A model generated the notes under the pieces. That model had not been told where the DNA came from and searched no databases. It was given only the letters and a program-made list of their open reading frames with translations. From NCBI GenBank assembly GCA_021399345.1, contig JAAFKI010000102.1, positions 1 to 12,537 of the forward strand: a stretch of DNA of 12,537 nucleotides, given 5' to 3'. Origin of the DNA: Candidatus Heimdallarchaeota archaeon (GTDB taxonomy: Archaea > Asgardarchaeota > Heimdallarchaeia > Heimdallarchaeales > Heimdallarchaeaceae). Shown here piece after piece: positions 121 through 12,537 of the stretch. The stretch's first letter is position 1. The number at the start of each line of letters is the position of its first letter. Position numbers and translations under genes: made by a program.

Positions 121-687
121 ATGGAAATTGAAAGTTTATTTCCTGAAATTAAAGAAATCAAGAATATTGATTTGTTGAATAAGGTAGCGAAATCTCTTGA
201 AAAAGCAATTCAACAAGGTGGATGGAGCACACAAGATCTTCACAAAATTCCTTTCACACTGTTAATTCCCGACTTAGTCAATGAAGATCTTACAGTGAAA
301 ATATCAATTATAGATCATATTCGAGCTGTAACACAGATGTGTTTAGCCACTTATGAAAGATATGAGATGCTTGGTCTTGGAGATAAGTTAAATAGAGATG
401 AGCTAATCGCAGGTGGATTACTACACGACGTAGGAAAATTCATCGAGTATGAAAAAGACGAAACTGGACATATAATTCAGACAGCGGAAGGAAAATACTT
501 ACGTCATCCAGCGATGGGTCTTGAATTAGTTTATGAATATTCTTTACCACTGATCGTTAGACAAGCCATTGTTTTTCACAGTAAAGAAGGAGATAAAATT
601 CCTAGATTAAAAGAAGTAGATATTATCCATCGCTGTGATTTTCTTTGCTTTGCTCCAATAAAACAAATATTCGAAGAAAATAAATGA
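121..687 (+). CDS. HD-domain (HDIG-type) metal-dependent phosphohydrolase, 188 aa
   Basis: Conserved HD-superfamily residues in order: DHIRAV, LIAGGLLHDVGK (HD at 424-429), LRHP, FHS, IHRCD. Size and motifs recall the MptB/MJ0837-like HD family; substrate not assignable. Confidence 0.88.
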   Translation: MEIESLFPEIKEIKNIDLLNKVAKSLEKAIQQGGWSTQDLHKIPFTLLIPDLVNEDLTVKISIIDHIRAVTQMCLATYERYEMLGLGDKLNRDELIAGGLLHDVGKFIEYEKDETGHIIQTAEGKYLRHPAMGLELVYEYSLPLIVRQAIVFHSKEGDKIPRLKEVDIIHRCDFLCFAPIKQIFEENK

Positions 688-705: not shown

Positions 706-1839
706 ATGAAGAAATACAAAATTGTAGTTTTACCAGGTGATGGTGTTGGTGTTGACGTAACAGAAGCAGCAATGAAAGTTCTGAAAGCTGTTGGATTTAG
801 TGATAAAGCTGAATATACATATGGAGATATTGGCTGGGAATTTTGGTGTAAGGAAGGAAATCCTTTACCAGATAGAACAATTGAGCTTCTCAAGAATTCA
901 GACTGTTCTTTGTTTTCAGCTATCACATCAAAACCCAAGGAAGAGGCTGAAAAGGAATTAGTTCCAGAATTACAAGGTAAGGGGTTAGTTTACTTTAGTC
1001 CTATTGTGAGATTACGACAACTGTTTGACCTTTATATCAACTTACGTCCTTGCAAAGCTTATCCAGGTAATCCTCTTAATTACAGGGATGATATTGATCT
1101 GGTAGTTTTTCGTGAAAATACTGAAGGACTTTATGTCGGAATCGAATGGCATCCTGTCCCAGAAGTAGTAATGAAAACAATTATTGAAAATCATCCCAAG
1201 GCAAAACGATTTGAAGAAGCGAATCTAGATGATGTAGCCATATCTACTAGAATATTCACTCGAGAAGGAGTTCAACGTATTCTCAAGGCTAGTATGGATT
1301 ATGCAAAGGAGTTTGACTACCCAACTGTAACTGTTGTAGAAAAACCAAATGTTATCAGAGAAACAAGTGGCTTGATGGTACGAGAAGCAAGAAAATTGAT
1401 ACAGGATTATGGCAACATAGAATTGTGGGAAACGAACATAGATGCAATGGCAATGTGGCTAGTAAAAAATCCTCAGAACTATGGGGTTTTAGTATCGTCT
1501 AACATGTTTGGAGATATTGTTTCAGACTTAGCAGCTCAGATAATAGGTGGGTTAGGTTTTGCTTGTTCAGGAAACATAGGAGAAAATTTTGCTGTTTTCG
1601 AGCCAACTCATGGATCAGCTCCCAAGTATGTGGGAATGAATAAAGTAAATCCAATTGCACAAATTCTTGCTGCAAAAATGATGTTAGATTGGTTGGATGA
1701 AAAAGACATGGCTAAAAAGATTGAAGATGCAGTAGCCGCTGTAATTGTTGAAGGAAAATATCGCACTTATGATATGGGCGGAAATACAACAACTTCTGAA
1801 ATGGCAGACGCCATTTGTGAGAAGATAAATGTCCTTTAA
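706..1839 (+). CDS. Isocitrate/homoisocitrate/isopropylmalate dehydrogenase family protein (homoisocitrate dehydrogenase-like, predicted NADP-type)
   Basis: LPGDGVG N-terminal motif; three substrate Args in RLRQLFDLYINLRP and FRENTEGLY (catalytic Tyr); catalytic Lys in EKPNV; metal-binding IDA..M and NMFGDIVSD; FEPTHGSAPKY. SD-like AGGTG at 693-697. Confidence 0.95.
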   Translation: MKKYKIVVLPGDGVGVDVTEAAMKVLKAVGFSDKAEYTYGDIGWEFWCKEGNPLPDRTIELLKNSDCSLFSAITSKPKEEAEKELVPELQGKGLVYFSPIVRLRQLFDLYINLRPCKAYPGNPLNYRDDIDLVVFRENTEGLYVGIEWHPVPEVVMKTIIENHPKAKRFEEANLDDVAISTRIFTREGVQRILKASMDYAKEFDYPTVTVVEKPNVIRETSGLMVREARKLIQDYGNIELWETNIDAMAMWLVKNPQNYGVLVSSNMFGDIVSDLAAQIIGGLGFACSGNIGENFAVFEPTHGSAPKYVGMNKVNPIAQILAAKMMLDWLDEKDMAKKIEDAVAAVIVEGKYRTYDMGGNTTTSEMADAICEKINVL

Positions 1840-1963: not shown

Positions 1964-3232
1964 ATGACTAGCTTCACACTTATTGAAAAAATCATCAGAA
2001 ATCGTACAGATGTTTCAGATAGTGAGATCTATCCAAATAACATAGTATGGGTTAATCTTGATTTGGTTACAGCAAGAGATTATGCAGGACCTCAAGTTAT
2101 AGATCTATTTCAAAAAAACTATATTGGTTCTAAAACATTCAACAATGAAAAAGTTATCTTTACTCCAGATTGTTATCCTTATGGCAATGATCCAAAGCAT
2201 GCTAAAGATCAAGAAAAAATTCGCGTATTTGCCAAAGAACATGGAATCAAGGTAACTGATCTCGGGTCAGGTATAGGTTCTCATCTATTGTTTCGAAGAG
2301 GTTTTTCAAAACCAGGAGATGTAGTTATTGGAGCTGATAGCCATTATAATATTCTTGGAGCTTTAGGAATCTTAGGGCAAGGAGCAGGAGATGTCATGCT
2401 TGCTTTTGCCTTGAAAACAGGAAAATCATGGATAAAAATTCCTGAAACTGTAAAAATTATCTTAAAGGGAGATTATGAGTGGCCAACAACAGCAAAAGAT
2501 TTAGCTCTTTATGTTCTAAAAGAACTTCATGAATATGGAATTACAGGGAAAGCTGTCGAATTCTATGGTGCGATTATTGACAAGTTATCAATTGAAGAAA
2601 GAGTCACTTTATGTTCTCTAATTACAGAAGCTTCAGGCGTTATTGGATTTGTACCAGCTGATAAAATTACAGCTGATTATTACTCCAAGATTGGAATCGA
2701 GATAGAAATGTTATCCGCTGATGAAGATGCAAGATACATCTCAGAATTAGTCTTAGATATTCAAGATTTAGGCCAATACATCGCATGTCCTCCACATCCA
2801 CATAATGTCAAAAAAATTGAGGAAGTAATGGGTACTCCCATAAATTCTATTGTTATTGGTTCTTGTACAAATGGAAGTTCAGCAGATATTCATGATGCTG
2901 CAAAGATACTAAAGGGACACAAAATCAACCCAAATGTGAGATTTGGAATAGTTCCTGCAACTAGAGAGGATTTCGTTTCAATCAATCTAAATGGCGATAT
3001 GACAATAATTCTAGAATCTGGTGGAAACTTTTTTGGTGTAGGTTGTTCAACCTGCGCGAAGGGACAATATGGTTTAACCGGGGGTGAAACAGCTGTAACT
3101 TTAACAACAGGAAACAGAAACACTCAAGGCAAAATTGGTCCCGCAGATGTTTATTTAGCTAGTCCTGTTGTAGCTGCAGCTACAGCAATTGAAGGAAAAA
3201 TTGCTGCTCCTAAAGAGGTGGTTAAAAGATGA
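1964..3232 (+). CDS. Aconitase-family (LeuC/HacA-like) [4Fe-4S] hydro-lyase large subunit, divergent active site
   Basis: TLIEKII start, IGADSH, TGKSWIKIPET, TAKDLAL, three cluster cysteines (IGSCTNG, GCSTC), NRN, VYLASP..AAATAIEGKI. The ORF track starts at GTG 1949; ATG 1964 is preferred because that GTG lies within the SD motif. Confidence 0.92.
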   Translation: MTSFTLIEKIIRNRTDVSDSEIYPNNIVWVNLDLVTARDYAGPQVIDLFQKNYIGSKTFNNEKVIFTPDCYPYGNDPKHAKDQEKIRVFAKEHGIKVTDLGSGIGSHLLFRRGFSKPGDVVIGADSHYNILGALGILGQGAGDVMLAFALKTGKSWIKIPETVKIILKGDYEWPTTAKDLALYVLKELHEYGITGKAVEFYGAIIDKLSIEERVTLCSLITEASGVIGFVPADKITADYYSKIGIEIEMLSADEDARYISELVLDIQDLGQYIACPPHPHNVKKIEEVMGTPINSIVIGSCTNGSSADIHDAAKILKGHKINPNVRFGIVPATREDFVSINLNGDMTIILESGGNFFGVGCSTCAKGQYGLTGGETAVTLTTGNRNTQGKIGPADVYLASPVVAAATAIEGKIAAPKEVVKR

Positions 3233-3735
3233 GTAAAGAAACAATCAAAGCCAAAGCAAAGCTAGTCATAGTAGATGACATTGATACCGACCAAATATTT
3301 CATCAATCCTTATTAACAATTCATGACCCCAATGAAATAAAACCGCATATTTTCGGAAATCTTGAAGGGTATAAGAGTTTTGGAAAGGAAGATAATGTTG
3401 GGAAGATATTATTAGTTGGTAAAAATTTCGGTAAAGGATCCACAAGACAACAAGCTGTAACAGGATTTATAGCTCATGGAATCACAGCAATAGTTGGTGA
3501 ATCTTTTGGGCCAATTTATTATAGTAATTCTGTAAATTCAGGTTTACTCCTTGTTGAAGTACCAGGAATATCTGAATTCAAGGTTAAAGAAGATGATAAT
3601 CTAGAAATAGACATAACTCAATCATTAATTATCAACCAAAATAATGGGGAGACCATTAAATGTGTTAAAATACCTCAACCAGTATTAGATATAATAGAAG
3701 CTGGTGGTCTTTTAAAACTTGGAGAAATAATGTAA
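3229..3735 (+). CDS. Aconitase-family (LeuD/HacB-like) small (swivel) subunit, divergent
   Basis: DDIDTDQI, GKNFGKGSTRQQA (canonical GxNFGCGSSREHA), NSVNSGL, IIEAGGL. ATGA overlap with the upstream large subunit. Confidence 0.92.
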   Translation: MSKETIKAKAKLVIVDDIDTDQIFHQSLLTIHDPNEIKPHIFGNLEGYKSFGKEDNVGKILLVGKNFGKGSTRQQAVTGFIAHGITAIVGESFGPIYYSNSVNSGLLLVEVPGISEFKVKEDDNLEIDITQSLIINQNNGETIKCVKIPQPVLDIIEAGGLLKLGEIM

Positions 3736-3747
3736 AAAGTGGGATAT

Positions 3748-5598
3748 ATGAATGGCAAAACATTTTCAGAAAAACTTTTTTCGTTTAAATCAAATACAGG
3801 TGTGAAAGCTGGCGACATTGTTTATGCTGAACCTGATTTAATTCTGTCACACGATAATTCAGCATCAATAGAAAAGACTTTTCAAAAAATGGGTGGAACA
3901 AAAATCAAATTTCCTGAACGTCTTGTAATAGTCTTGGATCATGATTCACCACCAACGAGTGCCAAGATAGCAAATGATCATAAAAGTATAAGAGAATTAG
4001 TTAAAAAGCAGAATATAACTAATTTCTATGATGAGGGGAGGGGAATCTGCCATCAGTTGATGTCCAACCATGCTTCACCTAATATGCTCATTGTTGGATC
4101 AGATTCTCATACATGCACAAGTGGTGCATTTGCTACATTTGCAGCAGGAATTGATAGAACAGAAACAGCAGGATTGTGGTTAACAGGAAAGACTTGGTTT
4201 AGGGTTCCTGAAACAATTAAAGTTGTGCTAAATGGTAAATTACCTTTGGGTGTTTATGCAAAGGATATTGCTTTATGGTTAATGAATAAAATAGGCGCTG
4301 CTGGAGCGACCTATTATGCAATTGAGTTTCATGGAAAGGGTGTAGAAGCTTTATCTGTATCTGAAAGAATGACACTAGCAAACCTAGCTTCAGAGATGGG
4401 CGCTAAAACAGCTATTTTCCCACCAGACAAAGTTTTAATCAAATGGTCAAAAGAGAAACATGGTTCATCTGTAATTCCACAAGAAAAACTATTCTGGTCG
4501 GACAAAGATGCAATATTTAGCAGAGAAATCATTCTAGATTTAGCAAAATTGGAACCTTTAGTTGCGGTTCCACATCAAGTAGATAACACACAGTTTGCCA
4601 AAAAACTAGAAAAAACCCCCATTCATCAAGCTTTTCTGGGAACTTGTACAAATGCCAGATTAGATGATTTAGAGATTGCTGCGGAAATAATCAAAGATAA
4701 AAAAGTGAAAAATGGAGTGATGTTTCTTGTAGCTCCAGCTTCAAACAAAATCTATCTTGAAGCTTCAGAGAAGGGAGTTATTCAAACACTTGTTAAGGCA
4801 GGTGCAATAATACTTTCATGCAGTTGTGGTCCGTGTTTAGGTAAGGGACAAGGAATACCAGCTGACGACTGGAATGTTTTATCTACTGCAAACAGGAATT
4901 TTCTGGGAAGAATGGGAAATAAAAATGCACGTATATTTTTGGCATCTCCAGCAACTATAACAGCTTCTGCAATTGAAGGAAAAATTACAGACCCCAGAAA
5001 ATATCTATCATCTGGAGCCATAAGAGAGGAAACTGAAATAGAGCTACAATATAGAGATGTAGAAACTAAAACCCTTGAAATAGACTCTAAAGACGATAGA
5101 TACAACATGTATGTTTGGGATTATAGTGATGTTGACGATTTCAACACAGATCAGATGTTTGCGGGAGGTCTTACATACGATATTAAATCTTCAGAGGGAG
5201 ATAAAATAGTTCCACATTTATTCAAAGGCTTAGATGAAACTTTTGCAACTAGAATTAAGGAGGGGGATATTGTAATAGGTGGAGAAAATTTTGGATGTGG
5301 TTCATCAAGAGAACATCCAGCTGTAGGACTTGCAGCTGCGGGTGTTAAAGCTGTTATTGTAAAATCAGTATCTCGGATCTTTTATAGATCTGCAATTAAC
5401 CAGGGATTACCAATCATTGTACATCAAGAGTTCATTGAAAAATTTGATAAAAATCAGCAAACAACAATTGACTTAGAAAAAGGCCAAATTACAAATGGAA
5501 GTCAAGTTTATTCTTTCCCAAAACTACCAAGTGAATTACTAGAAATATTCACAGCTGGAGGACTTATCAAATATTATCAAAAACAATACTCAAACTAG
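3748..5598 (+). CDS. Fused large+small subunit aconitase-family hydro-lyase (homoaconitase-like)
   Basis: Large domain: SHDN, LDHD, GRGICHQ, GSDSHTCTSGA, FLGTCTN, SCGPCLG, STANRNFLGRMG, LASP. After a ~40 aa linker, small domain: NTDQMF, GENFGCGSSREHP, SRIFYRSAINQGLP, AGGLI. The ORF track starts at GTG 3739; ATG 3748 is the likelier start. Confidence 0.93.
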   Translation: MNGKTFSEKLFSFKSNTGVKAGDIVYAEPDLILSHDNSASIEKTFQKMGGTKIKFPERLVIVLDHDSPPTSAKIANDHKSIRELVKKQNITNFYDEGRGICHQLMSNHASPNMLIVGSDSHTCTSGAFATFAAGIDRTETAGLWLTGKTWFRVPETIKVVLNGKLPLGVYAKDIALWLMNKIGAAGATYYAIEFHGKGVEALSVSERMTLANLASEMGAKTAIFPPDKVLIKWSKEKHGSSVIPQEKLFWSDKDAIFSREIILDLAKLEPLVAVPHQVDNTQFAKKLEKTPIHQAFLGTCTNARLDDLEIAAEIIKDKKVKNGVMFLVAPASNKIYLEASEKGVIQTLVKAGAIILSCSCGPCLGKGQGIPADDWNVLSTANRNFLGRMGNKNARIFLASPATITASAIEGKITDPRKYLSSGAIREETEIELQYRDVETKTLEIDSKDDRYNMYVWDYSDVDDFNTDQMFAGGLTYDIKSSEGDKIVPHLFKGLDETFATRIKEGDIVIGGENFGCGSSREHPAVGLAAAGVKAVIVKSVSRIFYRSAINQGLPIIVHQEFIEKFDKNQQTTIDLEKGQITNGSQVYSFPKLPSELLEIFTAGGLIKYYQKQYSN

Positions 5599-5608
5599 AG
5601 GGATAAAA

Positions 5609-6925
5609 ATGAAATTATACGAATATGAGGCAAAGCAGATTTTTGAACAGTTTAACCTTAAAATTCCTAAACAAATAGCAATAATAGAAAGTGTTGAAGA
5701 TTTAGTGGACATATCTTTAGAATTTCCAATTATGATTAAGGCTATGGTTTTAATTGGGGGAAGGGGAAAAGCAGGAGGAATAAAGAAAGCTGAAACTATT
5801 GAGGAAACAGAGAACATCATAAAAGAAATGTTGGGTTTAACAATTCATGGTTATCCTATAAAGAAAATTTTACTTGAGGAAGCGGTTGATATTGCTAGTG
5901 AAATCTACCTGTCCATAACCACTGATCCTGCAACTTTTGATATAGTATTGGTTACATCTGCAAGTGGTGGTGTTGATATTGAAGAAGTTGCTCGAACTAA
6001 ACCAGATGAAATATGGAAGAAAGTACTAAGAAATAATGACAAATCTTTGAATGCTGAAATAGGAAAAAAAGCTGCTGATTTTCTAGTAGATAAAGATCAA
6101 AATCTCCAACTAGTGAGTGAAAAACTTCAACAAGCTATTGAATCTCTCTATTTGGCTTTTCAGGATGCTGAAGCAAAAATTTGTGAAATAAATCCCCTAA
6201 TTGTAACAAAGAAAGGAGACATAATTGTTGCTGATGCGAAATTTGTACTTGATGATAACAGTTTGTACAGACAAACACCTTTGCTGAAATCAATTGGGAT
6301 AGATCCCGGAAGTAAAAGGCACGATGTTTCAGAGCAAACAGCTTTTGAAGCAAAAGCATATCAAATCGGCTTTCCGTTCATTGATTTACTAGAGAATCCA
6401 GAGAATTTTGTGAAAGATGAAGAGAAACTGTATGTAGGTCTTGTTCCAGGAGGAGCAGGATATGGAATTTTTTCTGTAGATGAAATTGTTAATGTTGGAA
6501 ATCGATATTTCAATGGCAAGGTTGTTCCCATAAATTTCATGGATAGTGGTGGTGGTCCTTCAATAAGTAAGGTTGCAGATATGTTTCACCTTCTTATGAA
6601 TCATCCAGCAACAGATCTGATTATAACTAGTCGTTTTGGGGGGATATCTAGTTGTGATGTCTTCATTCAAGGATTGATTATGTCATTAAGAGATAGATTC
6701 ATTGCTAAGAAAATAATGATACCGGTTTATGGTCGAATGGTTGGAACTGATTTAGCTGCTGCAAAAGCCTTCCTTGAGAAAGCTAAGCTAGAAACACCAG
6801 AACCACTAATAGACTTACACATTGTTGTTGGAAATCAAAAGATAATGGTGGATGTCATTAAAGATGGAATTGAATATGGGTTTAAAGTGAAAAAACAAAG
6901 TGAGAATATGGAGGGTATTAAATGA
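5609..6925 (+). CDS. Succinyl-CoA synthetase beta-like / acyl-CoA synthetase (NDP-forming) ATP-grasp subunit; probable partner subunit of an ATP-citrate-lyase-like enzyme
   Basis: MKLYEYEAK, KAMVLIGGRGKAGGIK, EIYLSI, GGVDIEEVA, EINPL, ADAKFVLDDNSLYRQ; C-terminal ligase domain with GGAG, NFMDSGGG and FGGI. Confidence 0.9.
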   Translation: MKLYEYEAKQIFEQFNLKIPKQIAIIESVEDLVDISLEFPIMIKAMVLIGGRGKAGGIKKAETIEETENIIKEMLGLTIHGYPIKKILLEEAVDIASEIYLSITTDPATFDIVLVTSASGGVDIEEVARTKPDEIWKKVLRNNDKSLNAEIGKKAADFLVDKDQNLQLVSEKLQQAIESLYLAFQDAEAKICEINPLIVTKKGDIIVADAKFVLDDNSLYRQTPLLKSIGIDPGSKRHDVSEQTAFEAKAYQIGFPFIDLLENPENFVKDEEKLYVGLVPGGAGYGIFSVDEIVNVGNRYFNGKVVPINFMDSGGGPSISKVADMFHLLMNHPATDLIITSRFGGISSCDVFIQGLIMSLRDRFIAKKIMIPVYGRMVGTDLAAAKAFLEKAKLETPEPLIDLHIVVGNQKIMVDVIKDGIEYGFKVKKQSENMEGIK

Positions 6926-9063
6926 CAACTGATAAATTAGCCGTGGATCAAGGACTTCTCTATTATCTCATCAAACACATTCGTCCTGAACTCGCTCAGA
7001 AAATATCCGAAAAGAAAACAATTGAAACTATGATTGTTGGATTAGGAAGACAAGGAACTCGACACGCGCAACTTATGATGGAATATGGGACCAACGTTAC
7101 ATGTGGAGTAGCACCAGGCAAAGGTGGTACATATGTTCATGAAACTGTTCCTGTTTATGAATCTGCTGAGTCAGCAAAAAGGAAATACCCTGATATAGCT
7201 GTAGCAAGTATATGGAAACATTATTCTTCTGCTAAGGATGCTACAATTGAAGCTATTAGATCAGGAATTCCTATTGTTGTTCTAATTTCAGAATTTATTC
7301 CATTAAAGGATGTAAGAGACATTCTAGTTGAAGCTAGAAAACATAAAACAATCTTATTTGGTGGTAACACACCAGGAATAATATTTCCTCCAGAAGGAAT
7401 AAAAGTGGGTATGCTTCCAGATATTTTTCAGGCTCAAAAAACAGATAACAAAACTGGTCCCAAAGGAGTGACAATTTTATCGCGAAGTGGAGCTATTCTA
7501 TATCATTTATCTGATGCACTAGCTAGTGCAGGAATTGCTCAAAATGGAGTATTGGGTGTAGGGGGAGATGGAGCTATTGGTTCTCGTTTTATAGATCTTG
7601 TTTCAAGAATAATGCAATACGAGCACACAGATTTAGTTGTTATCGCTGGTGAAATTGGTGGAATGCAGGAAGAATTGCTAGCTCAAGACATGGAAGCAAA
7701 TCCAGAAAAATATCCAAAACCTCTAGTTGCATTAATATCAGGAGCCAATGCTCCGGAAGGAAAAACCATGGGGCATGCAGGAGCTGTAATTTCTCCTGGG
7801 CAAAGTTATGGTACCTATCAAACAAAGAAGGAATCCTTGGAAAAAGCAGGAGTAACTGTAGTAAACCATCAAAGAGATTTAATAGATGCTGTAAGGTCAA
7901 AATTAAATCGAATATATTTTGATATTGAGGAATATTACTCAAAAATGCGTAAAAAATGGGATGCTAGACCACCAGTGAAAACTTGGGGGACTTTAGTAAC
8001 TAATGTAATGCCAAACAATTTGATAATACGAGGATATCCTCTACAAGAAATTATAGCAGAAAAAGGATTTTTGGAAACGTCATATTTACTCCTTAAAGGA
8101 GAATTTCCTGAAGAAGCTCAACTTAAAGAGCTTGAAGATATTGCAAAAGAAGCAATAAAACAAGAATTCGCGGACCTTAAATCGATTACCATAAGTTCAG
8201 ATATTTCTAAAACTCTTGGAACATTGATGTTGGTCGATAATAAACTTGCAGATTTTGTAAGATTGAATTCTGAAGAAACAAAAATCGCTGCTTATACATT
8301 GGGAAGAGTATTGAAGTATTTTGCATATATTCTAGGCAATTTAGATCAACTAGAATCTTCTTCAGTTTCTGAAACATCATTCTCAGAAATGATATATATA
8401 GGATTGGTCAAAGAAAAAAACCCAGACACGCTTAAAGTTAAGCTGTTAGAAGCAATGATTACTGCTTGTGTAGATCACGGAATCACACCACCATCAGCTC
8501 AAGCAACAATAATTCTAGCGTCGACTAGAGCTAATTATGAAGTAGCTGTAGCTGGAGGTTTACAAGCAATTACTGATGTTCATGGTGGTGCAGGACAAAA
8601 GGCAGCTAAATTCTTCTTATCAGTTGTTGAAAAAGCTGAAAAAGAAAAATTGGAACTCGATGAATCCACCTTCAAATTGATACGTGAAACAATCAAAACC
8701 GGCAAAAGAATTGAAGGTTTAGGTCACCGTATTCATACACAAGATCCTAGAAGAGATGTTTTATGGAAACTTGCAGAAGATGCAGGATATGCAAAGAGTT
8801 GTGTTGATGTTTCAAAAATGATTAGTAGTGCTTTCCACCGCGTGCGAGGAATGAACCTCCCAATTAACGTAGATGGGGTTATTGCGGCGATTACAGCTGA
8901 CATGGGATTAGACCCAAAACTTGCAAAAGTTATTTTTGTATTTGGGAGAACAGCAGGACTGGCCGCACATTATTTTGAGGAAATTAATACTCAGCCTCAG
9001 ATGAGAAGGATTGCGTTTGATAAAGCTACTTACAAAGGACCATCAATTAGAGAAATTAAATAG
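6922..9063 (+). CDS. SucD-like CoA-binding/phospho-His subunit fused to a citryl-CoA lyase/citrate synthase-fold domain (ATP-citrate-lyase-like large subunit)
   Basis: N-half: GVAPGKGG, GGNTPG, SRSG, GVGGD, GEIGG, GKTMGHAGA (phospho-His at 7774-7776). C-half from ~7984: IRGYPL, DHGITPPS, HGGAG, GLGHRIH..DPR, PINVDG, GRTAGLAAHYFEE. ATGA overlap with the beta-like gene. Confidence 0.92.
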   Translation: MTTDKLAVDQGLLYYLIKHIRPELAQKISEKKTIETMIVGLGRQGTRHAQLMMEYGTNVTCGVAPGKGGTYVHETVPVYESAESAKRKYPDIAVASIWKHYSSAKDATIEAIRSGIPIVVLISEFIPLKDVRDILVEARKHKTILFGGNTPGIIFPPEGIKVGMLPDIFQAQKTDNKTGPKGVTILSRSGAILYHLSDALASAGIAQNGVLGVGGDGAIGSRFIDLVSRIMQYEHTDLVVIAGEIGGMQEELLAQDMEANPEKYPKPLVALISGANAPEGKTMGHAGAVISPGQSYGTYQTKKESLEKAGVTVVNHQRDLIDAVRSKLNRIYFDIEEYYSKMRKKWDARPPVKTWGTLVTNVMPNNLIIRGYPLQEIIAEKGFLETSYLLLKGEFPEEAQLKELEDIAKEAIKQEFADLKSITISSDISKTLGTLMLVDNKLADFVRLNSEETKIAAYTLGRVLKYFAYILGNLDQLESSSVSETSFSEMIYIGLVKEKNPDTLKVKLLEAMITACVDHGITPPSAQATIILASTRANYEVAVAGGLQAITDVHGGAGQKAAKFFLSVVEKAEKEKLELDESTFKLIRETIKTGKRIEGLGHRIHTQDPRRDVLWKLAEDAGYAKSCVDVSKMISSAFHRVRGMNLPINVDGVIAAITADMGLDPKLAKVIFVFGRTAGLAAHYFEEINTQPQMRRIAFDKATYKGPSIREIK

Positions 9064-9083: not shown

Positions 9084-9884
9084 ATGAAGAATCTAGCATT
9101 TGAGATAATTGGGGATATATTAATCATCAGGGATGATTCTGATGAAATTTCTTTGAAAAGCTTTGCAGAAGAAAAAATCCAAAAGCACTCTTTTATTAAA
9201 ACAGTATTACTTCAAACCTCCAAAATCCATGGACAAGAGCGAAAAAGAAAGATCAGGTATGTTATGGGAAAAAACAAATCAGAAACAATTCACAAAGAGC
9301 ATGGAAATTCATTCTTAGTAGATTTATCTGAAGTATTTTTCTCTCCTCGTTTGAGTTATGAAAGACAACGAATTGCTAATTTGATTGGAGAAAATGAGAT
9401 AATTCTAAATTTCTTTTCAGGAGTTGGTCCGTTTAGTATAGCTTTAGCATCGAAATGCAATTCATGTGTTGTTCATAGTATTGAAATAAACAAAACAGCA
9501 TATGATTGTCTTCTCAAAAATATTGAAACAAACAAATGTCAGGAAAAAGTTATCCCTTATTTCGGAGACGCTTTTGAGATTGTTCCAAAAATGTTTATCA
9601 ACAGTGTAAATAGGGTTTTGCTTCCTTTACCTCTAGATTCAGACAAAGCCCTCCCAATAGCTTATCAAACTTTGAAAGACGGAAGAGGAATTATTCATTG
9701 GCAAATTACAAAAAGAATAAGCTCAAAAGAGATAAGGGAAGAAATAATTATTGACAGAATTAATAGCATCCCCCATTCATACAATTTCTCCAAGAATTAT
9801 ACAATTACAGATATGAGATTAATTAGATGGTTAGGTCCAAAAATAGCACATATTGCAGTAGATTTAAGTTTCAAAGCTCCTTAA
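9084..9884 (+). CDS. Trm5/Taw2-family (Met-10-like) SAM-dependent tRNA G37/wyosine-pathway transferase, lacking the N-terminal D1 domain
   Basis: FEIIGDILII, TIHKEHG..F.VDL..VFFSPRLSYERQR, SAM motif FSGVGPFSI, IEIN..AY..L..N...NK, GDA, RVLLPLP. The ORF track starts at TTG 9072; ATG 9084 follows a GGAG. Confidence 0.88.
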   Translation: MKNLAFEIIGDILIIRDDSDEISLKSFAEEKIQKHSFIKTVLLQTSKIHGQERKRKIRYVMGKNKSETIHKEHGNSFLVDLSEVFFSPRLSYERQRIANLIGENEIILNFFSGVGPFSIALASKCNSCVVHSIEINKTAYDCLLKNIETNKCQEKVIPYFGDAFEIVPKMFINSVNRVLLPLPLDSDKALPIAYQTLKDGRGIIHWQITKRISSKEIREEIIIDRINSIPHSYNFSKNYTITDMRLIRWLGPKIAHIAVDLSFKAP

Positions 9885-10305
9885 TAGAACTAACATAATC
9901 TGCGTATTCCTCAAGTTCTTTGAAATAATCTTCTGATGTAAAGATATATTCATTTGAGTTATTAATATCTCGAATAATTTGTAAGAGATCCTGAAGAGAT
10001 AAAATTCCATTAGTAATTAATAAATCGAAATTTGCAATTAAACAGACAGCATTTTTCAAAACACTTAATGTATCAAGTAGAGTGTTCCGAACATTATTCA
10101 CTGCCTCATTAGATCCAATTGTTACATAGGGAATAGAGTCTTCTAGCTCTAAATCCGGAATCCAAGTAAAAGAATCATCAATAATGATTACCAATACAGG
10201 TTTTGAGTGCCCTTTTGCTCTTAAAATTGATCCTAATCCAGTATGAAAAGCTCCTTTTCTCACACCAAAATAGTAATGGGTTAAGTAAAGGTCAGTCATA
10301 AACAT
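9871..10305 (-). CDS. CobO/BtuR (cob(I)alamin adenosyltransferase)-fold protein, degenerate
   Basis: HYYFGVRKG...GLGSILRAKGHSKPVLVI aligns by eye with the family's hYTGxGKGKTTAAhGxAhRAxGHGxKV. The C-terminal GILSLQDLLQII...EYIFTS....ELEEYADYVS matches GLI..EEVL.....ELVLTGR.....L.E.AD.VT. Confidence 0.6.
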   Translation of the reverse strand: MFMTDLYLTHYYFGVRKGAFHTGLGSILRAKGHSKPVLVIIIDDSFTWIPDLELEDSIPYVTIGSNEAVNNVRNTLLDTLSVLKNAVCLIANFDLLITNGILSLQDLLQIIRDINNSNEYIFTSEDYFKELEEYADYVSSIKEL

Positions 10306-10312
10306 CTACTTA

Positions 10313-11722
10313 CTAATTAGATTGACTTTGTAATTTTGCCAAGTATCGCTTGTATCCATCTAGAGTGTCTTCAACTCTCAACATATGCCTTTCTGCTTTA
10401 ATTCGTAGTTCTTGCCATTCCTCTTCATCGATTTTCTCCGAATTTAGAGCATGTTCTAATTGTTGGATTCTCTCTATGGCCTTTTGTCTTCGGGTTCCGA
10501 GGTGTTTGATAACATTCTCAATATCTTCGAATTGAATAGGGGTTTTATCTGTTTCTCCAGCTTCTGCCTCAATAATTTTAGTTAATGCAGATTTCTCTTC
10601 TTCCGGTTCTAAATCTTTTTCCTTGGATACATGTGCTATCGTTTCCTTTATTGAGGATACAAAGTCAGCAGCTGTTTCTCTCTGCTCGGGGGACGATAAA
10701 ACTTGATTTAATCTAGATATAGAAGAACGAAACTCATGGACTTCAGCAATTTCTTTCTCACTTAATCCTTCTTCACTTATCACACTTTCTTCAATTGAAG
10801 GGGTGCTTGGAAGCGTAATTTCTCCTTCTTCTTCACTAATGGATATTAGTTTTTCTGTTAATGGAGAAATAACTGTATCATCTCCCGGATCCAAGGCAGA
10901 TAACAAACCTGCTAACTCCTTCAAAGCTTCTTGCTCTGTTTCAATATTTTGCATAAAGGGTTCTTGCTCAAATTCATATTGGGAAGCAAGTTCAATGCCT
11001 TCAATCAGGTCTTTAGCATCATCCATCAAATCCTTTTCAGGTTGCTCAGTTGTTTCTGAAATATCATCCAAAGGAGCAGAATCCACCGGTACAGAATCCA
11101 ATTCAACTTCTTCAATAATTTCTTGTTCTTTAATTTCCTCAACTTCAGGCTTTTCTGTTTCAGCTTCAATCAGTTCTTCAAAAACTTGAACATCAGAATC
11201 GTCTTGTTTTTTTTCCTCGTTTTGCTTTATAGGAATCTGTTTTGATGGTTCAATTTCTGTAATTTGAATATTACTTCTTTGGAGCTGTAACAAGGCTGTT
11301 GTTTGTTGTTTCAGCTTTTTTGTTTCTTCACGAATAGAATTAATGTTAAGCTCCAACGTTTCAAGTTTTGCATTAATGAACTGTAATGTATCATTTTCAG
11401 TACCACTGAATCTATGATATTCTATTTGTAACATATTTGCATATGTAATTACATTGTAAACTGTATCAATCATTTCAGGTAATTCTCTAAACCAAGGTCC
11501 TGCACTGTCGAATTTCAGAAGAATATCCTTAGCAGTCGAAAAATGCTTTTCGTACTCTTTTTGTTGCTCTGGTGGTAAACAAGTTTTAACATATGAGGAA
11601 AGAGTAGCCAGATTTGTTATAAGATGTGTTTTAACATCCTCCTCTTCTTCTGGATTGAATTTACCCTTTAGAACTCCCCAAAACATCGTTTTAATTTCTT
11701 CAATTGCTTTCTCAAGGCTCAT
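10313..11722 (-). CDS. Hypothetical acidic, coiled-coil / partly disordered protein, 469 aa
   Basis: Long ORF packed 2 nt and 7 nt from its neighbours; helical N-terminus, heptad segment, long E/D/P/S-rich middle and helical C-terminus. No family recognised. Confidence 0.85.
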   Translation of the reverse strand: MSLEKAIEEIKTMFWGVLKGKFNPEEEEDVKTHLITNLATLSSYVKTCLPPEQQKEYEKHFSTAKDILLKFDSAGPWFRELPEMIDTVYNVITYANMLQIEYHRFSGTENDTLQFINAKLETLELNINSIREETKKLKQQTTALLQLQRSNIQITEIEPSKQIPIKQNEEKKQDDSDVQVFEELIEAETEKPEVEEIKEQEIIEEVELDSVPVDSAPLDDISETTEQPEKDLMDDAKDLIEGIELASQYEFEQEPFMQNIETEQEALKELAGLLSALDPGDDTVISPLTEKLISISEEEGEITLPSTPSIEESVISEEGLSEKEIAEVHEFRSSISRLNQVLSSPEQRETAADFVSSIKETIAHVSKEKDLEPEEEKSALTKIIEAEAGETDKTPIQFEDIENVIKHLGTRRQKAIERIQQLEHALNSEKIDEEEWQELRIKAERHMLRVEDTLDGYKRYLAKLQSQSN

Positions 11723-11724
11723 TT

Positions 11725-12537
11725 TTAAAACCCTAAATTAATTGTTCTTCGTTTAGTGAAATCATGAGGTAATGAAGGCTCTAAATAAATTTTATCGATT
11801 TTTAAATCATCCTTCAGCTGAATAGTAACATCAAGTTTTTCTTTCGAATCAATGTTCCAGAAATATAGAGATGGTTTTATTCCTGATCGAGAATACTCAC
11901 TTAGTATAGAAAATGAACTTACCAGATGTTGATACTCAGGACTTTTTTTAGCAGGAAAAGATTCACTCCATGGATTCACATGAATGATTATATTGTTTGT
12001 AATCTTTGCTAATTCTGTGATATTTTGACCAAAGAACTCATTAGCTCCAGTAATAAAACCAGTTTCTTTATCAGCTTTTAATACAAAAGAAATATCGATA
12101 TTCTTTAGGTTTTTCACAGTATCTGTAATTTCTCTTAATGTTTGATTAATGTAAGTAGACCTTTCATCATTCCAATTTTCCATTAGGTCCCGGGATTCAA
12201 GATATTCAAAACTGAAATCTCTTTCAATATTCCACTTGCTCGCAAATAATCTCCTACATCTATCACAGAAACAAGTTCTTTTGCTTGCCAACATCAAATC
12301 GTCTAATACCAAATTTTCTATTGGGTAATGAGCTATTTCTGATGCTATAGCTGCTGAATATTTTACCAAATTTTCTTGGCTTGGACAAGAATATGAAGCA
12401 ATAGTAGCGCCATCGCTACTACTTAGTTGAAAATCAGTGTTTTGGGAAAGAAAACTATCCCCATGAACATAAGTAACCGCATCCACTTTTATTCCCATAT
12501 TGTCTGCAATTGTACAAAATGAATGAAAGAAGACACC
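11725..12537 (-). CDS. 5'-truncated putative glycoside-hydrolase-like TIM-barrel protein (GHL10/GHL6-like) with CxCxxC motif
   Basis: The frame is open from the window edge (GVFFHSFCTIADN-MGIKVDA...), so ATG 12498 is probably internal. The pattern GIKVDA...D...G....CPS.......EIAHYPIENLVLDD...CFCDRC...F resembles GHL-type barrels. Confidence 0.55.
   Translation of the reverse strand, partial: GVFFHSFCTIADNMGIKVDAVTYVHGDSFLSQNTDFQLSSSDGATIASYSCPSQENLVKYSAAIASEIAHYPIENLVLDDLMLASKRTCFCDRCRRLFASKWNIERDFSFEYLESRDLMENWNDERSTYINQTLREITDTVKNLKNIDISFVLKADKETGFITGANEFFGQNITELAKITNNIIIHVNPWSESFPAKKSPEYQHLVSSFSILSEYSRSGIKPSLYFWNIDSKEKLDVTIQLKDDLKIDKIYLEPSLPHDFTKRRTINLGF

Follow-up and report, generated by a model that had tools for sequence, protein, structure and literature searches.

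Why does a single archaeal operon encode two enzymes of the aconitase family side by side? The question is raised by a stretch of 12,537 nucleotides (contig JAAFKI010000102.1 of assembly GCA_021399345.1; the whole stretch is called the window below) from a Candidatus Heimdallarchaeota archaeon, whose genome of 3.27 Mb is 88.6% complete and has a GC content of about 35%. One of the two enzymes, P1, is divergent and split into a large subunit (P1L, positions 1964-3232, plus strand) and a small subunit (P1S, 3229-3735, plus strand); the other, P3 (3739-5598, plus strand), has both parts fused in one protein. Comparisons of their active sites, phylogeny and distribution support the view that P1 and P3 are ancient paralogues and not redundant copies. 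Less firmly, we propose that they may be partners that split the two half-reactions of one isomerisation, within an operon that would form a self-contained module interconverting citrate and 2-oxoglutarate; we regard this as a serious possibility, if short of a probable one.

Two enzymes with different active sites

P1 and P3 lie in a tight operon on the plus strand, which open reading frame (ORF) calls combined with Pfam and NCBIfam matches resolve into genes for an HD-domain protein, a dehydrogenase (Iso_dh), P1L, P1S, P3, a SucC-like subunit and a fusion of SucD with citryl-CoA lyase (CCL). P1L (422 aa; PF00330, 222 bits) is counted from the ATG at 1964, with an alternative opening of the frame at GTG 1949; P1S has 168 aa (PF00694, 56 bits) and P3 has 619 aa (PF00330, 307 bits, and PF00694, 60 bits), all three above the Pfam gathering cut-offs of 28.7 bits (PF00330) and 22.8 bits (PF00694). 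P1L and P1S overlap by 4 nt, as do the SucC-like gene and the SucD-CCL fusion, and a gap of 3 nt separates P1S from P3. The two enzymes are flanked by a single dehydrogenase of the isocitrate dehydrogenase (IDH) family and by a SucC/SucD-CCL pair that resembles ATP-citrate lyase (ACL). A preliminary description of this DNA had read the locus as a split divergent pair followed directly by a fused enzyme, accompanied by only one dehydrogenase and one condensing or cleaving enzyme; the ORF calls and domain matches bear out the arrangement, and the gene count is true of the window and of the whole genome, in which PF00180 and PF00285 each have one match and PF00330 is found in two genes, every one of them inside the operon.

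Named homologues assign the source to the Heimdallarchaeia, a group of the Asgard archaea. P1 and P3 share 30% identity in the large part and 33% in the small part. Their residues were mapped onto the numbering of pig aconitase, with the structures of isopropylmalate isomerase (IPMI) and homoaconitase (HACN) from Methanocaldococcus jannaschii also used. The catalytic set of P3 is complete (SHD, LDHD, GICHQ, GSDSHT, CTN, CGPC, NRNFLGR and GSSRE). P1L retains the Fe-S ligands C306, C366 and C369, together with D130-S131-H132, E227 (Glu262) and N389-R390 (Asn446-Arg447), and the P1S motif GSTRQ retains the Ser642-x-Arg644 base; the three cluster cysteines, the Asp-Ser-His triplet and this base are present in both enzymes. 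Asp100-His101, His147 and Arg452, on the other hand, are found as a set in P3 and not in P1, where D74-C75 (FTPD-C) replaces Asp100-His101, so that the general acid His101 is absent, S111-H112 replaces His147-Gln148, with the His moved by one position (GIGSH), and K395 stands for Arg452 (NRNTQGK); P1L also has R43 for Gln72 (ARD). H112, R43 and the small-subunit His are candidates for taking over from His101. These changes extend throughout the P1 clade, which is marked by FT[FP]D[CLT], GIG[ST]H and NRNxxGK, and in a 20-sequence alignment of archaeal and bacterial members R43, D74, H112, D130-S131-H132, N134, E227, C306, C366, C369, R390 and K395 are invariant. Because the clade holds residues of its own invariant, P1 appears to have an active site of a working type and not a decayed one. 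A decaying pseudo-enzyme was accordingly considered and rejected: the residues are invariant across phyla, and P1 is as conserved as its neighbours.

The preliminary description had called the fused enzyme canonical, which is right for its catalytic residues and wrong for its family, as P3 is of the archaeal IPMI/homoaconitase type and not a classical AcnA, AcnB or mitochondrial aconitase. P3 passes the cut-offs of NF001614, TIGR01343 and TIGR02086 but of no equivalog model, and P1 falls under every NCBIfam cut-off. Against the methanogen HacAB models, P3 scores 417 bits and P1 279 bits on NF040615 (cut-off 550), and 114-117 and 92-99 bits, respectively, on NF040604/NF040625 (cut-off 230); the LeuCD models TIGR02083 (cut-off 611) and TIGR02084 (cut-off 246) are likewise missed, with scores of 406/297 and 120/97 bits, as is the fungal Lys4/LysF model TIGR00139 (cut-off 529.9; P3, that is P0003, 366.5 bits, and P0001 157 bits). 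All scores on the AcnA, AcnB, mitochondrial and AcnD models are 200 bits or less, against cut-offs of 945 (TIGR01341), 1287 (TIGR00117), 825 (TIGR01340) and 1420 bits (TIGR02333). P3 shares its fusion of large and small parts with the "putative aconitate hydratase" of about 650 aa (PRK07229/TIGR01342), which is the sole aconitase beside IDH in many anaerobes; it differs in scoring only 385 and 299 bits on these two models (cut-offs 612 and 719), and our tree places a true PRK07229-type member from Cloacimonadota (644 aa) in neither the P1 nor the P3 clade.

For the large and the small parts of both P1 and P3, the closest solved structures are M. jannaschii IPMI and HACN, with 4KP2 as the top PDB match of P3. 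The M. jannaschii enzymes, namely IPMI/citramalate isomerase MJ0499/MJ1277 (4KP1, 3VBA) and homoaconitase MJ1003/MJ1271 (4KP2, 2PKP), are heterodimers of a large and a small subunit with the same Fe-S ligands as P1 and P3, but they differ in the specificity loop of the small subunit, and P1 is without the His of their Asp-His motif. The loop reads YLVY in M. jannaschii LeuD and YLRT in HacB, whereas in P1S it is DTDQIFHQSLLTI (HQSLLTI); a His-Asn just ahead of it (DTDxI[YF]HN; HN..L.I), for which the window has HQ, is invariant in the P1S family. In P3 the loop is KYTY[ST] in the family and LTYD/KSS in the window, matching neither YLVY nor YLRT. An equivalence between the Lys of the P3 loop and Arg26 of HACN was considered and dropped, as the family alignment has KYTY[ST] and bacterial P3 small subunits have Tyr at that position.

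These loops and scores bear on a more ordinary explanation, in which the genes are housekeeping paralogues: one pair would be the LeuCD of leucine synthesis, or the HacAB of lysine or coenzyme B synthesis, and would lie beside the aconitase by accident. Both proteins do match, or come near the cut-offs of, the IPMI_arch and hacA_fam subfamily models, but neither the YLVY nor the YLRT loop is present, the scores stay under every equivalog cut-off, the genome has just one Iso_dh gene, and none of the 31 species-level genomes of the window's own archaeal family (f1) has a gene of the LeuA or homocitrate synthase (HCS) type; where LeuCD linked to LeuA/LeuB is present, it constitutes a third, separate gene set. 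Housekeeping paralogues are thus hardly credible here. A role in leucine synthesis was rejected on the same grounds, the absence of LeuA-type genes from the 31 genomes and the one Iso_dh gene in the window's own genome, in which no LeuA-type gene (HMGL-like, PF00682) was found.

Clades and co-inheritance

In a maximum-likelihood tree, P1 and P3 form separate clades with SH-aLRT supports of 99 (P1, on a long stem) and 96 (P3); the sub-clades of the two are congruent, and the P3 clade adjoins LeuC-like genes that are linked to leucine operons. In bacteria the P3 clade is represented by two genes (P3L and P3S) in place of one fused gene. Close orthologues of P1 (60-95% identity) occur only in metagenome-assembled genomes of Heimdall type, and beyond them identity is 46% or less. 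When one genome per species was scanned for the pattern, at least 565 loci encoding P1-type proteins came up, in Aminicenantes, WOR-3, Cloacimonadota, Anaerolineae, Eubacteriales, Acidobacteriota, Aciduliprofundum/DHVE2, Thermoplasmata and Borrarchaeum; P1 is no local oddity, being part of a large clade, so far uncharacterised, in many anaerobic phyla. In the literature that we searched, neither the P1 clade nor a pair of aconitases beside ACL or beside citryl-CoA synthetase (CCS) and CCL is described; one Cloacimonadota paper mentions an ACL-aconitase-IDH cluster and does not remark on the two paralogues.

Two observations concern the architecture of P1 itself. In Aciduliprofundum/DHVE2/Thermoplasmata and in one group of Aminicenantes (L134, L128, L135, L076, L090, L092 and L095), P1L has no P1S-type gene in its locus, and in L095 the only small subunit is of P3 type; in those lineages P1L may use the small subunit of P3, or a P1S gene may lie at another place in the genome. 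Where ORF calling had shown no P1S in several bacterial loci, the gap was due in part to the calling itself, and tblastn recovered the gene. A search for fused forms returned no P1-P3 or P1-IDH fusion. It did bring up a metagenome protein of 1000 aa (P0127) with a Zn-alcohol-dehydrogenase (MDR) domain N-terminal to P1-type large and small subunits (motifs ARDFGG, DSHAN, NRNYPGKQG, DTDMIFHN and GSSRQQ), which comes from a single contig and could be an artefact of gene calling.

Within family f1 the P1/P3 pair is found in 27 genomes (one of them truncated, so that 26 hold both) and neither enzyme in the remaining four, and all aconitase-family matches of the family fall in an adjacent P1/P3 pair. 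The whole operon, SucC-like orthologues included, is syntenic in all ten related loci that were fetched, which indicates that its layout is not due to chance. Among these loci P1L is 76-96% and P3 71-95% identical, with similar values for the ACL genes; being as conserved as P3 and the ACL genes, P1L is under purifying selection. Orthologues of the SucD-CCL fusion with 57% identity or more are found in Heimdall families f1, f2, f5 and f6. At a larger scale, about 53 of 83 Heimdallarchaeia hold both enzymes, 24 hold neither and about six are discordant; the discordant genomes are all 86% complete or less, and in at least one of them this is an artefact of P1 being split over two contig ends. 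In family f5, P1 and P3 are divergently transcribed neighbours, with the ACL genes located elsewhere. Genomes with a lone P1 have a P3-clade gene elsewhere in all five cases tested (Aciduliprofundum, DHVE2, Thermoplasmata, Cloacimonadota and WOR-3). A Borrarchaeia-like genome has the order HD-P1L-P1S-(PALP)-IDH-ACLb-ACLa, with P3 not in cis and canonical-type pairs elsewhere in the genome.

The four f1 genomes without the pair (G026, G074, G080 and G152) have no aconitase-family, ACL-like fusion or LeuA-type gene; G026 and G074 are single-contig genomes that are 92-93% complete. Since these four lack the whole set, the module is dispensable within the family.

In bacteria, the same functions are assembled in a cluster of nine genes, in the order SucC-like (about 519 aa), SucD (about 300 aa), CCL (about 260 aa), HD (about 178 aa), P3L, P3S, IDH, P1L and P1S. 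Among 58 loci from outside family f1, examined by neighbour clustering and Pfam, seven have the complete cluster and many contig-truncated ones have part of it; IDH shares the locus with P1L in 24 of the 58 and lies immediately upstream of it in the 20 that were mapped. Identity between the window and the bacterial cluster is 62.6% for the dehydrogenase, 50% for P3L, 44% for P1L, 40% for the HD protein and 27-37% for the ACL parts. That the dehydrogenase is so much better conserved than its partners suggests transfer of the module between domains, with uneven rates of change. The co-occurrence of P1 and P3 with ACL-like genes, which the preliminary description had left to be checked, thus holds in archaea and in several bacterial phyla, and homologous clusters do not commonly carry only one of the two enzymes, inheritance being nearly all-or-none. 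The description's view of the pair as non-redundant gains from the same data: two well-supported clades are inherited together almost without exception and co-localise with ACL-like or CCS/CCL genes, a dehydrogenase and an HD gene.

This pattern also bears on the idea that P3 is the working aconitase and P1 an isozyme for other conditions, a regulator or sensor, or a non-catalytic partner or scaffold. The missing equivalent of His101, the long branch of P1 in family f1 (0.77) and the lack of an adjacent P1S in some lineages would suit such an accessory role. It seems very unlikely to us all the same, as P1 keeps the three Cys, Asp-Ser-His, Glu262, Arg447 and Ser-x-Arg, has invariants of its own across phyla and is conserved as strongly as its neighbours, and an isozyme would not show near-obligate co-inheritance with P3 across two domains.

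Substrate and division of labour

In the module that we propose, the ACL-like enzyme (SucC-like subunit and SucD-CCL fusion) would link acetyl-CoA and oxaloacetate with citrate; P1 and P3, as non-redundant Fe-S hydro-lyases, would jointly interconvert citrate and isocitrate via cis-aconitate; and a dehydrogenase similar to homoisocitrate dehydrogenase (HICDH) would link isocitrate with 2-oxoglutarate. P1 (split, with its relocated His and extra Arg) and P3 (fused, with canonical residues) would act as obligate partners, each most likely suited to one binding mode of cis-aconitate, that is, to one half-reaction. The near-obligate partnership suggests that both enzymes are needed, and a citrate/isocitrate/2-oxoglutarate module is the simplest reading because no other gene in the family could handle citrate, isocitrate or their homologues. 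Tentatively, P1 would act on the isocitrate side and P3 on the citrate side, because the gene order is IDH-P1-P3-ACL in the window, and IDH-P1 and CCL-HD-P3 in bacteria. What the data show directly is the gene anatomy, the residue pattern, the two clades with their co-inheritance and clustering, and the lack of any further aconitase, IDH, citrate-synthase or LeuA-type gene; the substrate (citrate), the division of the half-reactions, which enzyme does which, and the direction of flux are inferred.

The nearest precedent is the alpha-aminoadipate (AAA) pathway, in which the homoaconitases of fungi and Thermus carry out only the second half-reaction and an aconitase does the first (PMC3556520); the preliminary description had invoked the fungal case, and rightly so. 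By analogy with that pathway, where two Fe-S enzymes of the aconitase superfamily achieve one isomerisation (Aco2 or AcoA with Lys4 or LysF in fungi, and the Thermus system; PMC3556520), P1 and P3 may share theirs, and P3 resembles fungal Lys4 in the fusion of its large and small parts. Different from the AAA pathway, where the partner is a classical aconitase, the partner here belongs to an IPMI-like clade without His101, the two genes are in one operon and co-inherited, and they are accompanied by no homocitrate synthase or lysine genes. The methylcitrate cycle follows a similar plan, in which separate enzymes (AcnD/PrpF or PrpD, then AcnB) dehydrate and rehydrate what a citrate-synthase-fold enzyme has made. 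P1 and P3, however, score only 50-96 bits on the AcnD model, the operon has no PrpF, PrpD or PrpB, and the next enzyme here is a dehydrogenase and not a lyase.

Of the partner enzymes, the dehydrogenase (706-1839, plus strand, 377 aa; PF00180, 301 bits), of isocitrate/homoisocitrate type, has AksF2 and LEU3_arch as its best NCBIfam matches, all under cut-off, and Thermus thermophilus HICDH (3ASJ), followed by NAD-dependent IDH (6LKY), as its closest structures. The motifs SPIVRLR, EKPNV, HGSAPKY and RTYD are common to the window and the bacterial cluster, and relative to Thermus HICDH there is an insertion of about 15 residues (KPKEEAEKELVPELQGKG). The SucC-like ATP-grasp subunit of the ACL-like enzyme (5609-6925, plus strand, 438 aa; PF08442, 148 bits) scores under the cut-offs of the models for the beta subunit of succinate-CoA ligase, and the fusion protein (6922-9063, plus strand, 713 aa) carries CoA_binding, Ligase_CoA and Citrate_synt (152 bits) domains. 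Its lyase half comes close to two models, with 212.1 bits on NF004866 (cut-off 245) and 206.9 bits on NF004869 (cut-off 212), and the CCL of the bacterial cluster is above the citryl-CoA-lyase cut-offs (276 vs 212 and 262 vs 245 bits). A SucC/SucD-like ligase joined with a citrate-synthase-fold lyase is the plan of CCS with CCL in Hydrogenobacter thermophilus and of classical ACL; as in ACL, the lyase of the window is fused to the SucD-like part, while its beta subunit has no Citrate_bind domain.

The layout of the ACL functions varies. In the window the alpha subunit is the SucD-like and lyase fusion, and the beta subunit has Ligase_CoA; in bacteria the functions are spread over three genes, with a SucC-like protein of about 519 aa that has weak matches to Citrate_bind and to a C-terminal 4Fe-4S dicluster domain.

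Classical ACL and the Hydrogenobacter CCS/CCL system work with one ordinary aconitase. This speaks against the argument of the preliminary description that the stereochemistry of the Si-type lyase domain forces the division of labour, as does the presence of P1 and P3 in five Heimdall genomes in which no citrate-synthase-fold gene was found. The same description had favoured a chiral substrate other than citrate. This could be, for example, a "wrong-handed" homocitrate made by a citrate-synthase-fold enzyme, on which P1 would act as a special dehydratase and then P3 as a homoaconitase-like hydratase, much as PrpD or AcnD/PrpF act in the methylcitrate cycle. Several features are consistent with it: homocitrate pathways supply the nearest characterised relatives of both P3 (hacA_fam; 4KP2) and the dehydrogenase (AksF2; 3ASJ), the Asn of IDH is missing from the dehydrogenase loop SPIVRLR, the rebuilt acid/base set of P1 could suit a different geometry of elimination, and the bacteria that have the full set in parallel with citrate synthase and another IDH recall Thermus, with its tricarboxylic acid cycle and AAA sets. 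A homocitrate-like substrate would have no visible consumer, however, with LeuA/HCS-type genes in none of the 31 family genomes and neither LysX nor DapA found in the window's own genome. LysX was also not found at the search threshold in five of eight other genomes with P1 and P3, two more having matches far under the cut-off, and the three cluster-bearing bacteria G211, G212 and G214 have DapA and no LysX. This pattern weakens the homocitrate/lysine version, and a role in lysine synthesis by the AAA pathway was rejected on it as a general explanation. A chiral substrate would moreover leave family f1 without any route from oxaloacetate to 2-oxoglutarate, and sits poorly with the bacterial CCL scores, with the single aconitase of canonical Si-type ACL and CCS/CCL systems, and with the five genomes that have P1 and P3 and in which no citrate-synthase-fold gene was found. 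We therefore consider it decidedly unlikely.

Another reading makes P1 and P3 two full isomerases for two substrates: one would handle citrate/isocitrate and the other a different hydroxy-acid (homocitrate, citramalate/citraconate, methylcitrate and D-malate/maleate are examples), with a promiscuous dehydrogenase and possibly a promiscuous lyase. The differing loops of P1 and P3 (HN..L.I vs KYTY[ST]), neither of them IPMI- or HACN-like, would fit it, as would the Lys for Arg452 and Arg for Gln72 of P1, both at substrate-binding positions. The dehydrogenase is nearest to the dual-specificity HICDH of T. thermophilus (Thermus HICDH is promiscuous), and citrate synthase and a second IDH are already present in the cluster-bearing bacteria, two of which also have an AcnB-like gene. 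Set against this are the lack of LeuA/HCS/CimA-type genes in all 31 family genomes, the LysX and DapA pattern given above, and a co-inheritance of P1 and P3 so nearly all-or-none that it exceeds what two independent pathways would need. Two substrates are in our view unlikely, though by no means far-fetched.

The proposal of a single isomerisation divided between P1 and P3 has its own difficulties. No sequence feature confines either enzyme to one half-reaction, and M. jannaschii IPMI and HACN each perform both half-reactions alone (cited in PMC3556520); gene order is a weak argument for assigning the halves. The dehydrogenase has no IDH Ser-x-Asn signature in its SPIVRLR loop, where Ile replaces the Asn, and its closest characterised relatives are homoisocitrate dehydrogenases. 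Five Heimdall f6 genomes carry P1 and P3, with no citrate-synthase-fold gene found, and P1L stands without an adjacent P1S in some lineages. Besides the cluster, an ordinary citrate synthase and a second IDH are found in G211, G212 and G214, and G211 and G212 have an AcnB-like gene too, while AcnA-like genes are present in other Heimdall families; with the classical set present, a second aconitase system for plain citrate looks redundant in those genomes. The classical genes and the f6 genomes fit a non-redundant function, which could lie in a branch dedicated to reduction or cleavage, or in the use of another substrate.

On a more far-reaching view, P1 may represent an unstudied ancient branch of the aconitase superfamily, one that lost the general acid His101 and rebuilt its active site. 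It would either function only with P3, as a two-component aconitase, or isomerise another tricarboxylate, in both cases within a compact ATP-dependent module for citrate cleavage or formation that Heimdall archaea share with many anaerobic bacterial phyla; we hold this tentatively. In this Heimdall family the module would be the sole link from acetyl-CoA and oxaloacetate to 2-oxoglutarate. If the reaction is split, or the substrate new, a textbook step performed by a single enzyme would gain a widespread two-enzyme alternative, built from isomerases of the leucine/lysine type with a new, His101-less active-site solution. In that case annotation pipelines, which label such genes LeuCD or homoaconitase, would skew the metabolism reconstructed for Asgard archaea, Aminicenantes, Cloacimonadota, WOR-3, Thermoplasmata and others. 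Since this Heimdall family has no other candidate route between citrate and 2-oxoglutarate, the direction and substrate of the operon would also matter for models of how carbon flows in the archaea most closely related to eukaryotes.

Other genes of the locus

The first gene of the operon (121-687, plus strand) encodes an HD-domain protein of 188 aa (PF01966, 38.7 bits; HDIG domain), for which no relative was found in the PDB. It travels with P1 and P3, as HD-IDH-P1 in the window, HD-P1 in Borrarchaeia and CCL-HD-P3 in bacteria; homologues lie at L091:4274-4813 and L028:10272-10787. In the Borrarchaeia-like genome, a protein of 684 aa encoded close to the P1 locus (L027:14404-16458, minus strand) has an N-terminal Ras/Roc small-GTPase domain, a gene of the type typical of Asgard "eukaryotic signature" proteins.

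In the window, the SucD-CCL fusion is followed by a Taw21/Trm5-like methyltransferase gene. Two ORFs on the minus strand, at 10313-11722 (469 aa) and 11725-12498 (257 aa), match no Pfam or NCBIfam model; both have syntenic counterparts of 59-96% identity in related Heimdall loci, and several relatives of the 469-aa ORF match at its N- and C-terminal parts alone, with a gap between. A further minus-strand ORF (9871-10305, 144 aa) matches the C-terminal third of ATP:corrinoid adenosyltransferase (CobA/BtuR) under cut-off; in relatives this protein is retained yet fast-evolving, with 35-94% identity.

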